DNA from: Bacteroidales bacterium
GTDB lineage: Bacteria; Bacteroidota; Bacteroidia; Bacteroidales; CAIWKO01
Assembly: GCA_035389045.1 (NCBI GenBank)
Contig: DAOORA010000026.1
Coordinates: 1 to 52,526 of the forward strand
Direction of reading: 5' to 3'
Length of the DNA stretch: 52,526 nt
Shown here: positions 6,001-12,000 of the stretch, piece after piece
Layout: each line of letters begins with the position of its first letter
How positions within the stretch are numbered: the stretch's first letter is position 1
Made by a program: the position numbers

Positions 6001-9000
6001 ATCTCTTTGAAGCTATGCCCCATTTCCACCAGTTATTGTCGGAAATATATTTTTGTATACCCAATGATGTTTTGTTTTTCAATAAAAGCTCAAATTTAAC
6101 GAACAGCGCCCAAATTTATCTTCAAAAATAATTGTATTTAATGATTTGAGCAAATGTTATCTGTAGTTTTCTTTCAACAAAACATACAAAAAAACAGAAG
6201 GACATTTTTTTTATAAATAGTTTTTGTATAAAAAAAATTAGTAGGTTTGTGTACTAAAAATTATTATTTTTCTAAATATTATACTGATATGAAAACTACC
6301 GGAATTGATTACTACAAAGATGCCGCAAAACGTGCAGCACAATGGCATTCAGAAAATATTGGCAGAATGAAAAAATGCCGCTTCGATACCATTGCGGTGC
6401 ATGGAGTTTATTCCATGCAGGAAGCGCTTGATTTTAATCAGGGCTCAATTATCGAACCTATATATATGTCCTCATCGCAGGCTTACCGTGATTCGGATGA
6501 AATGGAAGCTGCATTGGCATACCAGGTACCAACATGGTGTTATTCGCGCATCGGCAACCCAAGTATGTACTATTTTGAAGGTGCCATGGCGTTGCTTGAA
6601 GGGTACGGCATGGAAACCGGAACGTCCTGTTGTGCTACATCTTCGGGAATGGCCGCTATCGCAAGCGCTACCGAACCATTTCTTGCTGTGGATCCAAAAA
6701 ATCCGAATCAGAAAATGAATTTTGTGGCTACCTGCCAGGTCTATGGTGGAACATTCCAGCAGTTTGGCGTGCGTAAAGATCAGGAACGCAACATCGAATG
6801 GCGCAAGATTGTCAACTCAAATGATATGAATGAATGGGAATCCAAAATAGATAAAAACACCCGCTTCCTTTATGGCGAAATGCCGAGCAATCCTTCTCAG
6901 GCATTCTTCGATCTGAAAAAAGTAATTGAACTGGGACATGCACATGGTATCCCCGTGATCATCGATAATACGGTGGCCACTCCTGCCCTGCTGCGGCCAT
7001 TAACACTCGGCGCCGATGTTGTGATACAATCGTCAACCAAAACCCTCACTTCAAGCGGATTTGCTATTTCCGGCGCTGTCATCGCACGCGACAACTTAAT
7101 ATCACGCTATAGTTGTGAAGAGCTAAAAGCATGCTACGGTGGATACCTCAAGCAACTACCTAACCGGGATATGGGTCCAAACATTTCACCCATGAATGCT
7201 ATTTTAGCGTTGAACGATATGCGCACCCTACGGTCCAAAGTAGATATGTTCAGCCGCAGCACTATGAAAGTTGCCAAATACCTCGAATCACACAAACATA
7301 TTGCACAGGTTGATTATCTTGGTCTTGAATCGCATCCTTTGCATAAACTTGCTTCAGAATACCTGTGGCTGGTTGATGCCGAATATGATGAGATGTACGG
7401 CAAACCTGTGAACCGCTATGGGCACCTGATGTCGTTCCATGTTAAAGGTGATGCACAGCAAACCCGCGACGTATTTGATGCTTTCCAGAGAATATGGCGG
7501 GCCACAGACCTCGGACGTATTAAATCCGTGGCGACTATCCCTGCCATATCTACCCATTCCCAACAGGGTGAAGAAGGGCGTAAACTGGCCGGCATCCCGT
7601 CTAACCTGATCCGGCTGTGTGTTGGCGGAGAACATCCCGATGACGTTATTGCTGATCTGGATCAGGCATTATCAGTACTCGACGGTAAAAAAGTATTCTT
7701 CTCAGCACCCGAATATTCTGCCGGAGGCGCTTCCTCTGCTGTTCTAAATAAAAAATAATAATATAAATAATCAAACATTAACCTTCATTTTTTATGAAAC
7801 ACAAAATTGCATTAATAGGCTTTGGTACCGTCGGACAAGGTATCAGCGAGATTCTTCTCAACAAAAAGAAATATCTGAAAGATAATTACAAATTTGATTT
7901 TGATATTGTAGCTGTTGCTGATTTCGTTTACGGAAACTGTTATAACCCCAAAGGGCTTGATGTAACTTACATGCTGAAAACCGCCAAAGCAAAGAAGAAG
8001 TTTAACAAAGACCTGTACAAAAAAGACACACTATCACTGATTAAAAACTGCAACGCCGACATGGTCTGTGAACTTACTTACACCGATCTGAAAACCGGTG
8101 GACCAGCCATTGACCATGTAAAAACTGCACTCAGCGCAAAAAAACATGTAGTTACCAGCAATAAAGGGCCTGCAGCATTGAAATACCAGGAATTCAGCAA
8201 ACTCGCCAAAAAGAATGGCGTAAGATTTATGATCGAAGGGACTGTGGTTGCCGGAACGCCCATCATCAACCTCAGCAAAGGTCCGTTGGCCGGTTGCGAG
8301 ATCAGTAAAATAAAAGGAATACTTAACGGTACTACCAACTATATGCTTACTGAAATGGAAAAAGGCATGGACTATGCTTCTGTTTTGAAAGTGGCTCAGG
8401 AACTGGGTTACGCTGAAGCCGACCCCACCGGCGATGTGGAAGGTTACGATGCAAGAGGGAAAGTATGTATATTGGCAAATGTTGTGATGGGTGCACCATT
8501 AAAAATAAATGATATTTCTTGTAAAGGGATTACAAAGATCACACCCAAAGACATTGAAAAAGCAAAGAAAGAAGGCAAACGCTGGAAACTGATCGGTTGT
8601 GTTGAAAATAAAAATGGAAAAGTAAGTGGATCGGTTAGTCCTGAAATGGTAGAACTAACTCACCCGCTTGCCGGAGTGATGGGTGCAAATAATGCACTTA
8701 CTTTTACCACGGATATGTTAGGTGATGTCACTGTAGTTGGTCCCGGAGCCGGAAGAATCCAGACGGGATACGCTATTTTGACTGATATACTGGCGATACA
8801 TAAAGGTTAGAGGTTGGTTCGGAGTTCGGAGTTCGGAGTTCGGAGTTTTGAGTTTTGAGTTCGGAGTTAATAGTTTCGAGTTACGAGTTACGAGTTAATA
8901 ATTATAAGTTTAATTATATGGCAACATTTACTGGTTTTGAAGAAATTGACGCTTGGAAAAAAGCCAGACAATTATGCAATACCACCTTCAGATTAATAAT

Positions 9001-12000
9001 GACTTCAGAGTTGGGAAAAGACTTTGGATTAAGAGACCAGATAAACAGATCAAGCGGATCAATAATGGTTAATATTGCGGAAGGTAGTGAAAGAGGCGGA
9101 AACAAGGAATTTATTCAGTTTTTATTCATTGCAAAATCATCAAATTCAGAATTTAAATCTCAGTTATATCGAATTCTTGACCGGAATTATATTAATGAAG
9201 AAGAATTTAAAAAAATCATGACATTGTCAAATGAAATAAGCAAAATGATCGGTGGTTTGATAAAATACCTAAAACAATCTGATCTAAAAGGTAGCAAATT
9301 CAAATGAGCAACCTTGAACTAAGAACTTTGAACACTAAACTTAAAACAAACAAAAAATTATACACCATTTTATGGCTTACACAAATAAATATTTAAAAAT
9401 AAACCTTACTACTCAAACTATTGAGTTTGGTCAAACAGAAAAAAAGCTTATTGAGCAATACATTGGCGCTAAAGGGATGGGCTTTGCTTTGCTCAACCGG
9501 CTAAATCCGAGTCCTGCCCCGTTTGATCCTGAAAATCCACTGATATTTATCAACGGACCTTTCACAGGAACAAAAATGCAGACCAGTGCGCGCACCACGC
9601 TCGTCACACGTTCGCCGCTTACAGGTTGTGCGCAGGATGCCCATTGCGGTGGCAGCTTTGGCCCACGGATGAAGTTTGCCGGTTATGATTATATATATAT
9701 CACAGGAAAAGCTGAAAGCCCTGTCTATATTTACATCCATGAAGATAAAGTTAAGTTTTTTGATGCAGCGGAATTCTGGGGCAAGGGTATTTTCTTTACC
9801 AATGATGAACTGATGAAGCGTCATCAGGGTATCGATCCAAGAGTGGCTTGTATTGGGCCTGCCGGAGAAAATCTTTCAAAAATCTCCTGCATTGGCGTAG
9901 ATAAACACCGTCAGTTTGGACGTGGTGGCGTGGGTGCTGTGATGGGGTCAAAAAACCTCAAAGCCATTGTTGTTGACGGAAACATCCCTATCAAATATTA
10001 TGATGAAGCTAAATTCAAGGAACTAAACCTTGAGGCGGCGAAAAACGTGCTGAATAATCCGAATGTCAAGTTCCGCAGAGTTAAAGGCACCATGAAATGT
10101 GTGCGCAGCTGCCAGAACAACGAAATTCTACCGGTGAAAAACTGGCAGAAAGTACAATATGAAGAATTTGAAAAGATCAGTTCTGAAACTACCCGCAAGG
10201 AACTCAACTGGGAAGATACCGGATGTTATAACTGTGCTATCCGCTGTTCCAAATGGGCAAGATGGGATGGGCACGAAATAGAAGGTCCTGAATATGAAAC
10301 CACAGCATTTCTGGGCTCTTCGTGTGAAATTTCAAACATCAAAGATGTGGCTTTCGGTAATGAAATCTGCAATGATCTGGGACTGGATACCATCAGCGCT
10401 GGTGGCACAGTGGCATTTGCTATGGAATGTTACGAAAAAGGTTTGCTGGAGCAAACATTTGGTTTATCTTTAAATTGGGGAAATGCGGAGGCACAAAGGG
10501 AATTGCTCAAACAGATGTCCCAAAGAAAAGATCTTGGTGAACTTTTTGCCGATGGAACCCGTGAGGCGGCTATTAAAATAGGTAAAGGAAGTATGGATTT
10601 TGCCATTCAGATCTGCGGTATGGAGTTGTCGGGAATTAACCCTAAAGGCTCCCTTACTATGGGGGTAGCCATGTCGGTAGCCGATTTTGCCAGTCACACC
10701 CGTTTATGGATTGCTGAATCTGAAAATGGACCTGATTTTAAAATTGAAGATATACTTCACGCAGTTTTCGAAGGCATCGATGTCACCAATGTCAGGAACA
10801 GCCTGGTAGTTTGCGACTTTCTTCCTTTAGGTCTTCCGGTATTGGCAGGTTTACTGAACGCAGCTACAGGAAGCGAACATACGGCTGAGAACCTGTTAAA
10901 GACCGGAGCCCGCATCAATCATCTGTCAAGAGCATACAACCTTCGAAACGGGCGTTCTGATGCCGACGACACGCTACCTGCACGTTTCTTCAATGAAGAA
11001 AGCCTGGGTGGGTTTATGAAAGGAAAAAAACTCGAACGTGATTATTTCAAATCCTTCATTAAGGAATATTACAAAATGCGCAAGTGGGACGATAATGGGA
11101 AACCTACTGAAGAAGTATTAAAAGAATTCGAAGTGATTTAGTGATTAAATTATATAGACAAAAACCCTTCCAATATTTAGGTCAGGTAATCCAAAGTATG
11201 ATTTTTACATTATCATATTCTGGTAAAACAAACTACTTTAGGTTCAGTCATTTCCTGCAAGGCAAATTTAATTCCTTCCCTACCTAATCCGGAATTTTTT
11301 ATTCCTCCGAATGGCATGGAGTCCAGACGGTAATCGGTAGACTCATTAATCATTACTCCTCCGCAATCCAGTTCATAAGCAGCTTTCAGTGCAACATTAA
11401 TGTCGGAAGTAAATATTCCTGCAAGTAAACCGTAATTCAGGCTGTTTGACTTTTCAACAGCTTCTTCCATGGTGGAAATTCTATATAGATTAACTGCCGG
11501 CCCAAAAACCTCTTCATGATGTATCGTCGCAGTTTCAGGAACATTTTCAAGGACCGTCGGGTCCATCAGGGCACCGGTTCTTTTGCCACCGCATAGGCAT
11601 GTTGCACCGGCTGTTACTGCTTCGTTCACCCATTTTTCGACCCTGATGGCTTCTTTTTCGGTAATCATCGGCCCCATATCGGTTTCTTCATGGAGTTTAT
11701 TACCAATTTTATATTTTAATGTTTTTTCAATAAATTTATCCCTGAATTTCTCATAAATAGCATCATGAATATATATTCGCTGAACACCGATACAGTTTTG
11801 CCCGGCAGCCCAGAAGGCTCCGGAAACAGATGATTCAACAGAATAATCCAGATCAGCGTCTTTCCATATAATAACCGGGGAGTTTGAACCCAACTCCATT
11901 CCTATTTTTTTTATTCCTGCCATCGCGGCAACTTTTTTCCCGGCCTCAACACCGCCTGTAAAAGACACCATCCTTACCCGTTCATCTTTAACAAGCATTG

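Follow-up and report, generated by a model that had tools for sequence, protein, structure and literature searches.

An aldehyde oxidoreductase clade encoded beside homoserine dehydrogenase in Bacteroidales, a candidate aspartate-semialdehyde:ferredoxin oxidoreductase

Introduction

A physiological role is defined for just five out of 92 clades of WORs in the accessible text of PMC13328260, which also presents GAPOR and GOR as tungsten enzymes that replace a kinase together with a phosphorylating dehydrogenase. For P. furiosus FOR (1B25/1B4N), which has been seen with glutarate bound, a dicarboxylic semialdehyde is the proposed substrate according to the accessible part of PMC12096430. Canavanine breakdown, as far as the available sections of PMC9533460 describe it, has been reconstituted from a PLP-dependent gamma-lyase, a homoserine dehydrogenase and an aldehyde dehydrogenase that oxidises aspartate semialdehyde (ASA), with dapA or threonine synthase encoded nearby.

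Here we analysed a window of 52,526 nucleotides from a Bacteroidales genome (G000; 96.3% complete, about 4% missing) in which an aldehyde oxidoreductase (AOR) is encoded next to homoserine dehydrogenase (hom). Acetogens couple an AOR to an alcohol dehydrogenase; the acid is reduced by ferredoxin and the aldehyde is removed by an NAD(P)H-dependent dehydrogenase to give ethanol. This route is the model for a reductive role of the present AOR, but its end product is catabolic and derives from acetate, and we know of no demonstration of such reduction for aspartate or for biosynthesis. Literature searches at the level of titles and abstracts, including the accessible part of the GapMind 2026 preprint, returned no description of the AOR clade or of the route; three supplements of PMC13328260 contained no match, and its Table_1, outside the search, may place the clade.

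Results and Discussion

Operon structure and neighbourhood

Gene order, family membership and gene presence or absence were read directly. The operon of a 589-aa AOR with a PLP enzyme (PLP489) and hom that the earlier note had described was recovered as four plus-strand genes within 6289-11141 (Table 1), one of which, a four-helix-bundle gene, had gone unmentioned; it is missing or swapped in most loci of the AOR clade and is an optional passenger. The juxtaposition of hom and AOR, likewise claimed before, held in 31 of 49 AOR-clade loci and spans Bacteroidota and Cloacimonadota. The P5C dehydrogenase downstream marks an amino-acid-catabolic context. A promoter/terminator scan stayed at chance level (13 versus 12.8 and 6 versus 5.1). 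Contigs from RNA runs of four studies span parts of the operon; strand, level and co-transcription are not readable from contigs, which therefore do not count as evidence here.

Table 1. Coordinates of the operon and adjoining genes in the window
Feature	Position	Strand	Support
Cys/Met-metabolism PLP enzyme (PLP489), 489 aa	6289..7758	+	PF01053, E 3e-83
Monofunctional homoserine dehydrogenase (hom), without ACT or kinase domain	7794..8810	+	PRK06270, 435.9 bits vs cut-off 373
Four-helix-bundle gene, 23S rRNA IVP family, between hom and AOR	8918..9307	+	PF05635, TIGR02436
AOR/WOR-family enzyme, 589 aa, single subunit	9372..11141	+	AFOR_N + AFOR_C
NAD(P) aldehyde dehydrogenase (ALDH), 468 aa	11213..12619	-	PF00171
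L-glutamate gamma-semialdehyde (P5C) dehydrogenase	12647..14275	-	TIGR01236, 772 bits vs cut-off 613.6

The AOR clade and its active site

The predicted model of the AOR (pLDDT 94.6) has the same fold as P. furiosus AOR (1AOR) and the Class I WORs 9G7J and 9MQX (large subunit), with a TM score of 0.95 and 34–36% identity in structural alignment. The clade is tight, its members sharing at least 53% identity and the next matches reaching at most 43%. The four cysteines that align to the [4Fe-4S] ligands of 1AOR (C285, C288, C292 and C481) were invariant in 49 aligned clade sequences. From the second shell of the P. furiosus enzyme (Thr243, Glu313, Tyr427 and His448), T240, E309 and H442 are retained, whereas at the position of Tyr427 the G000 AOR has Ile422 and the five patterns most frequent in the clade have Ile, Val or Thr; active AORs with other single second-shell substitutions are listed in the accessible part of the review PMC12096430. 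A further difference from P. furiosus AOR lies in K242, R245, E449 and R475, which are specific to the clade, and charged residues that are invariant in the clade surround the active site. R475 was present in 46 of 46 in-group and in none of 30 out-group sequences, and aligns with Arg481 of FOR, which we take to be the carboxylate anchor for glutarate. FOR is nevertheless only 32% identical, keeps the second shell complete and is not linked to hom.

With the large subunit alone, and with no small-subunit gene adjoining it here, the AOR falls in Class I of the WORs, and no gene for an Fe-S or flavin subunit recurred beside it in the 49 loci (no WorS, WorN or WorABC neighbour). It differs from Class I WORs in sharing an operon with hom instead of with pterin or electron-transfer genes. 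The AOR is a putative tungsten-pterin/[4Fe-4S] enzyme, tungsten being the probable metal. An indirect sign is that a WtpA of G000 passes the TIGR03730 cut-off and has WtpB/C-like genes next to it, and that moaA-, moaC- and moeA-like genes are present. Its sequence is remote from GAPOR and GOR (67 bits against a cut-off of 1300 for NF040818), whose substrate is a sugar phosphate and whose known role is oxidative.

Distribution of AOR, lysC and asd

The absence of aspartate kinase (lysC) and asd from G000, asserted in the earlier note, was borne out: PF02774 gave no match, tblastn with the LysC and Asd of relatives found nothing, and both AA_kinase matches were assigned from sequence and neighbours, one to UMP kinase and one to carbamate kinase. 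At the syntenic asd–lysC site of relatives, which lies intact within contig C60 with both genes missing, an assembly gap was rejected as the cause, although about 4% of the genome is not in the assembly. All absences refer to HMM or tblastn searches; a motif scan of G000 ORFs had missed metH.

The split within the family was also reproduced, nine of the 13 genomes at least 90% complete having AOR without lysC and asd and four the reverse. The exact complementarity claimed on this basis holds for these 13, but not across the 23 family genomes or among carriers outside the family. AOR coexists with lysC and asd in two of 16 family carriers (G004 and G014, 79% and 77% complete), and lysC scored above cut-off in eight of 42 outside carriers, seven of them with Asd. 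The AOR operon is kept beside a canonical lysC/asd/dapA/dapB/lysA/metA set in G054 and beside lysC/asd/metA in G053, while G428 and G257 (99% complete) have hom and a DapA variant without AOR or asd. Whether the weak matches in distant carriers were Asd or ArgC, a question left by the earlier note, is settled in favour of an Asd-like protein (11 carriers, none with lysC). His or Asn replaces the Asd catalytic Cys in all ten that were read, and these matches were discarded as working Asd on that ground.

Overall, asd is missing from 32 of 40 carriers with hom adjacent to AOR, against three of 13 AOR-less hom-type genomes; the other ten retain it, including five of the seven with PLP489 (Fisher p 4e-4, kinship ignored). 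This anticorrelation, the linkage to hom and the exchange of AOR for an aldehyde dehydrogenase described below make action on the aspartate/ASA pair well supported by gene context, and the AOR is most likely an aspartate-semialdehyde:ferredoxin oxidoreductase. To this extent the earlier proposal, that AOR supplies ASA by reducing aspartate, is partly supported, the reductive supply being its hypothetical part. Complementarity to lysC plus asd is neutral on direction, because GAPOR replaces its kinase/dehydrogenase pair oxidatively.

PLP489, ALDH and the direction of the reaction

PLP489 reached the cut-off of none of the NCBIfam families shown, the ESM Atlas returned generic names only for it and for the DapA variant, and a cluster look-up gave no informative names. 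It was present in 61 of 401 Bacteroidales sampled. Among 57 loci of Bacteroidales outside the family, thrC comes after PLP489 in 33, of which 27 also contain thrH or HomK; hom comes after it in 20, and four loci have neither gene there. The two are mutually exclusive, one or the other occurring in 53 loci and both in none. None of five thrC-type genomes tested (98–100% complete) contains any hom, so PLP489 stands in the homoserine-supplying place usually held by thrA, and it is probably a homoserine-forming gamma-lyase/hydrolase. Within the family it occurs in 15 of 16 AOR carriers and is missing from six of seven genomes without AOR.

ALDH orthologues occupy the slot of AOR after hom in G019, G021 and G428. 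In G030 and G312 they lie downstream of AOR and in its orientation; at all these positions they are 74–91% identical. ALDH is a candidate non-phosphorylating aspartate-semialdehyde dehydrogenase, and its family is one-way oxidative. G428 and G257 keep PLP489, hom, the DapA variant and thrB, with ALDH inserted in G428; since both lack AOR as well as asd, asd can be lost without AOR. The canavanine operon of Pseudomonas and Rhizobiales (CangL, HD, AH/AC, AAL) has the same gene layout of PLP enzyme, homoserine dehydrogenase and ASA oxidiser, but employs NAD aldehyde dehydrogenases where AOR stands here. No guanidine (Gdx) exporter or ABC importer recurred in the AOR loci, and neither of these nor an aspartase was seen at the G000 locus. 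Reduction of aspartate by ferredoxin was computed to be uphill by 12–35 kJ/mol, with 0.004–47 uM ASA at equilibrium with 5 mM aspartate, on assumed acid/aldehyde potentials.

Gene context suggests that homoserine is burnt more often than made, and we lean towards oxidation as the main direction of AOR. In the explanation that we prefer, at a probability of about 45% and with every chemical step inferred, AOR would be dedicated to the interconversion of ASA and aspartate with ferredoxin, without phosphate or ATP, as an aspartate-family counterpart of GAPOR with a mainly oxidative job. PLP489 would act on methionine, homocysteine or another gamma-substituted compound of this kind and set homoserine free. 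A share of the homoserine or ASA would enter the branch of ThrB and the DapA variant towards diaminopimelate, and the surplus would pass through Hom to ASA and through AOR to aspartate, yielding NAD(P)H and reduced ferredoxin. lysC and asd would become dispensable mainly through the PLP489 homoserine source, a reversible AOR perhaps serving as back-up. If so, the locus would stand for a way of degrading homoserine anaerobically with reduced ferredoxin as a product, and PLP489 would be a new homoserine-forming enzyme; in either direction the clade offers a concrete, assayable substrate.

The alternation of thrC and hom after PLP489, ALDH in the AOR slot, G428 and G257, the co-occurrence of PLP489 and AOR, G054 and G053, the canavanine precedent, the uphill reduction and R475 count for mainly oxidative action. 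Against it count the retention of asd in most AOR-less genomes together with its loss in 32 of 40 carriers, and five carriers with hom adjoining AOR but without lysC, asd and PLP489 (G034, G035, G039, G041 and G050; completeness not given), in which no Cys/Met PLP enzyme was found at E 1e-30 in a search without positive control. AOR and ALDH would be redundant oxidisers in G000. In relatives with only lysC and asd, reduction is the one direction in which this Hom can work, if it works at all. Its nucleotide-binding motif, GFGTVG in 57 of 60 sequences, corresponds to GXGXXG, so that by motif Hom would not belong to the oxidation-only class AnHSD, marked by GXGXXN in the accessible text of bioRxiv 2021.02.09.430557; the cofactor motif leaves the direction undecided. 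MetH was found in five of five genomes tested; on this ground PLP489 might instead convert phosphohomoserine to homocysteine.

A reductive role and the diaminopimelate route

These opposing points bear on a somewhat unlikely alternative, in which AOR would use reduced ferredoxin to convert aspartate into ASA, Hom and ThrB providing the pull, and would be a main or indispensable supplier of ASA and homoserine in place of lysC and asd. It accords with the finding that none of the 23 family genomes lacks AOR, lysC and asd all together, with hom in 23 (a single copy in G000) and the DapA variant in 22, and with a Hom tree in which AOR-less rows, mostly with asd, are scattered (good support at 28 of 56 inner branches). 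AORs have been shown to reduce acids, according to the accessible part of PMC12096430. The five carriers without lysC, asd and PLP489 also speak for it, among them G034 with an SDR, hom, AOR, the DapA variant and thrB in one run, but most of the five have a class I PLP enzyme upstream of hom that could be another source. The AOR- and asd-less G428 and G257, a slot that ALDH can hold, PLP489 as an apparently independent homoserine source, lysC in eight of 42 outside carriers, the lack of the DapA variant in distant carriers and the low equilibrium ASA all weigh against aspartate reduction.

G000 encodes dapD, dapF and a DAP-type MurE and must therefore have a four-carbon precursor, a further point for aspartate reduction. 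Together with the lack of dapB and thrC throughout the family, these genes suggest a separate route without DapB. The DapA variant, encoded outside the window, when compared with solved DapA has Val, Phe and His at the sites of the Thr-Tyr-Tyr proton-relay triad (presumably T44, Y107 and Y133 of E. coli), and does not show the canonical triad. The motif TGKD in 43 of 43 sequences puts Lys at a position that is Asp or Asn in DapA, and the Schiff-base Lys is retained. It is unlikely, though conceivable, that AOR works reductively in vivo as an ATP-free, ferredoxin-driven entry to this route, Hom and ThrB forming O-phosphohomoserine and the DapA variant joining this to pyruvate, so that DapD, DapF and MurE would receive tetrahydrodipicolinate. 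Reduction would bypass aspartate kinase and Asd, with which the synthesis of lysine, threonine, methionine and diaminopimelate is taken always to begin, and would explain apparent auxotrophies of uncultured Bacteroidales. Combined with the DapB-less route, it would give a tungsten AOR a biosynthetic role, for which our literature searches found no description, and constitute a new diaminopimelate pathway.

Action on another substrate

Mainly oxidative action on ASA must also be set against an improbable third explanation, that AOR handles another semialdehyde (for example of glutamate or 2-aminoadipate) or detoxifies aldehydes broadly, its association with hom and with lysC/asd loss reflecting a shared operon history in peptide-fermenting anaerobes. 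In G000 and its close relatives a P5C dehydrogenase adjoins the operon, a piperideine-6-carboxylate dehydrogenase lies near it in G021, and 18 of 42 carriers outside the family have no hom adjoining AOR; most of the single-subunit WORs that have been characterised detoxify aldehydes broadly, according to the accessible text of PMC13328260. The breadth of the hom–AOR adjacency argues the other way, and hom was found elsewhere in the genome in five of five distant carriers tested. A separate AOR of 717 aa, encoded in G000 and most of its relatives, also counts against this explanation, as do the charged residues that the clade keeps invariant about the active site, and the anticorrelation with asd demands a cause.

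Gene context of AOR and loss of lysC and asd

The operon described in an earlier note was borne out: genes for a 489-aa Cys/Met PLP enzyme (PLP489), homoserine dehydrogenase (hom), a four-helix-bundle protein and the 589-aa AOR-family enzyme (AOR) lie on one strand, followed 3' and on the opposite strand by genes for an NAD(P) aldehyde dehydrogenase (ALDH) and a P5C dehydrogenase. The four-helix-bundle gene is flanked by short repeats, and the divergent cluster upstream of PLP489 is conserved beside the operon in close relatives only.

Features of the operon, its surroundings and related loci (first eight rows, window; C, contigs of G000, the genome of the window; L, loci)
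Feature	Position	Strand
FAD-linked oxidase, glycerol-3-phosphate dehydrogenase-like gene, lipid kinase	1948-6082	-
PLP489	6289-7758	+
hom, monofunctional	7794-8810	+
ttcggag/ttacgag repeat units	8810-8900	
Four-helix-bundle gene	8918-9307	+
aactt repeat units	9310-9350	
AOR, 589 aa	9372-11141	+
ALDH, 468 aa	11213-12619	-
DapA variant/thrB/SDR, with dapD, dapF and MurE	C61:10979-13568 (L005, L291); C9:54675-55493; C101:4269-5048; C18:59131-60588	
Second AOR-family gene, 717 aa	C23:20517-22670	
ALDH orthologue	L209:10608-12026	
thrC-thrH/HomK clusters headed by PLP489	L406, L412, L439, L452	
hom divergent from 410-aa protein, SDR, cupin and 407-aa class I PLP enzyme, distant carriers	L247:3742-9323; L248; L249	

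The reported absence of aspartate kinase and Asd from G000 (completeness 96.3%) also held. A profile search of the genome gave no match to PF02774, its two AA_kinase matches were read from sequence and neighbours as UMP kinase and carbamate kinase, and relatives' LysC, Asd, DapB, LysA and MetA found nothing as tblastn queries. A methionine-gamma-lyase-like gene precedes asd-lysC in G001, G004 and G014; its G000 counterpart sits within contig C60, with asd-lysC missing behind. Genome-wide, G000 has no ArgC, and ArgB/ProB are not among the AA_kinase matches, a pattern that fits a peptide fermenter deriving neither arginine nor proline from glutamate.

Among the 23 related genomes including G000 (the family), AOR (at least 67% identity) was present in 16, asd in 8 and lysC above cut-off in 7, with an additional lysC fragment in G021. 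The 9-versus-4 split previously noted among family genomes at least 90% complete was reproduced; the claim that AOR is exactly complementary to lysC plus asd failed, since G004 and G014 hold both systems and incompleteness cannot account for a presence. Among the 42 non-family records of 49 clade loci in the GTDB scan (best 80 of 581), lysC was found in 8 and Asd in 7 (6 strong matches and 1 archaeal-type adjoining lysC). Eleven further matches are an Asd-like protein of distant carriers, probably a pseudo-enzyme; the catalytic Cys is missing in the 10 read at the motif. In these carriers, which lack lysC, the Asd-like genes (L226, L228-L237) have a small-protein gene on one side and an ABC transporter gene on the other. 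Among genomes of the hom type, asd was missing in 32/40 AOR carriers versus 3/13 non-carriers (p 4e-4 with kinship ignored; completeness not given for 24 carriers, AOR of G421 checked at the locus only). The AOR-asd anticorrelation is strong and recurs across the hom tree, yet it is not exact. L181 (G015:C720) and L182 (G022:C62) carry identical ORFs despite different genera, and contamination of G015 is probable.

AOR as a distinct member of the WOR family

Domain, fold and cluster ligands place AOR in the WOR family; its active site and gene context set it apart from other WORs. Its predicted model matched solved AORs with a TM of 0.95; the four Cys and the equivalents of Thr243, Glu313 and His448 are conserved, and Tyr427 is substituted. 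K242, R245, E449 and R475 are invariant or nearly so in 46 clade members and nearly missing in 30 others, and R475 aligns (position counted on the alignment) with Arg481 of P. furiosus FOR, which we take to be a carboxylate anchor. Clade members share at least 53% identity and the nearest outsiders at most 43% (best 80 of 581, GTDB scan), with carriers assigned by record title to Bacteroidota, Cloacimonadota, Aminicenantes, Krumholzibacteria and a few others; 484 of 8000 scored proteins reached E 1e-150, a threshold that may admit some from outside the clade. Since G000 encodes the tungstate-binding protein WtpA and pterin synthesis genes, the cofactor metal is likely tungsten. No description of the enzyme or route was found in the literature searched, subscription papers and one supplementary table lying outside its coverage. 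Most family genomes also contain the 717-aa AOR.

Demand for a four-carbon unit and its possible source

Neither dapB nor thrC above cut-off was found in any of the 23 family genomes, lysC and asd holders included; hom is present in all 23 and a DapA variant in 22, usually with thrB and an SDR gene behind. In this variant the triad positions of DapA are occupied by Val, Phe and His, and a TGKD motif is invariant; G000 holds dapD, dapF and a DAP-type MurE. The pattern suggests an undescribed DapB-less route to tetrahydrodipicolinate/diaminopimelate, possibly via O-phosphohomoserine: pyruvate and O-phosphohomoserine would be condensed, or the usual aldol product would be phosphorylated, eliminated and then reduced by the SDR. 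A real need for a four-carbon unit favours the earlier proposal that AOR reduces aspartate to aspartate semialdehyde (ASA), although the unit needed may be homoserine rather than ASA. G001, G004, G005, G006 and G012 carry another copy of the DapA variant (66-68% identity; L188, L189, L191-L193), which comes without thrB and lies within a cassette made up of small metal-cluster and redox genes.

PLP489 occurs in 61/401 sampled Bacteroidales and is commoner than AOR. Of its 57 loci outside the family, 33 have thrC behind it, 20 have hom (12 of them with AOR) and 4 have neither; most thrC loci add ThrH or HomK, and HomK is a confirmed homoserine phosphotransferase (bioRxiv 2024.10.14.618325). No hom of any kind was found in the five thrC-type genomes examined (of 33; all 98-100% complete), so the simplest reading is that PLP489 produces homoserine, making it a candidate new homoserine-forming enzyme. 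Since metH is present in 5/5 genomes examined, PLP489 is also a possible sulfhydrylase, which leaves room for a reductive AOR. PLP489 stands alone in some metagenome contigs. It is often accompanied by a divergent AsnC-type regulator.

Direction of the AOR reaction

AOR probably acts on the ASA/aspartate pair (about 0.75), and action on another substrate appears improbable. For direction we lean, at slightly less than even odds, toward a mainly oxidative AOR, lysC/asd being replaced chiefly by PLP489. Orthologues of the window ALDH (74-91% identical) lie directly 3' of hom in G019 and G021. In G428 the orthologue is inserted on the opposite strand, between hom and the DapA variant, and in G030 and G312 it comes after AOR. 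ALDH is a candidate non-phosphorylating aspartate-semialdehyde dehydrogenase, swapping with AOR after hom. Five of the 8 hom-type loci without AOR were examined: asd is present in G289, G388 and G190, while both asd and this AOR are missing from G428 and G257 (99% complete). Joint loss of PLP489 and AOR accounts for 6/7 cases in the family, and G054 still has the operon next to a canonical biosynthetic cluster. If the acid potential is taken as -0.56 to -0.60 V and that of ferredoxin as -0.42 to -0.50 V, reducing aspartate would cost 12-35 kJ/mol. Canavanine breakdown, a proven pathway (PMC9533460), has the same architecture; GAPOR is a tungsten enzyme that oxidatively stands in for a kinase/dehydrogenase pair (PMC13328260).

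That AOR is substantially reductive seems rather unlikely, yet several observations speak for it. PLP489 alone is usually not tied to asd loss, as 5/7 AOR-less PLP489 genomes keep asd (G019, G289, G388, G190, G421); the motif of the oxidation-only class is missing from Hom; and AORs are described as reversible (PMC12096430). Moreover, G034, G035, G039, G041 and G050 contain hom, AOR and the DapA variant without lysC, asd or a Cys/Met PLP enzyme, in a PLP-enzyme search run without positive control on genomes of unstated completeness. In most of these five, a class I PLP enzyme of 407 aa, or its SDR partner, is encoded 5' of hom, and the 407-aa enzyme could be their alternative source. The 717-aa AOR, present in G000, G428 and G257 and in 5/5 genomes of one check, could also provide some ASA. 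As an equivalence of reaction, the statement that AOR replaces aspartate kinase and Asd is fair; as a claim about biosynthesis it is unproven. The 410-aa protein encoded at L247-L249 has no match in Pfam or NCBIfam, and the 407-aa enzyme also lies 5' of hom-AOR in some Bacteroidota and Cloacimonadota.
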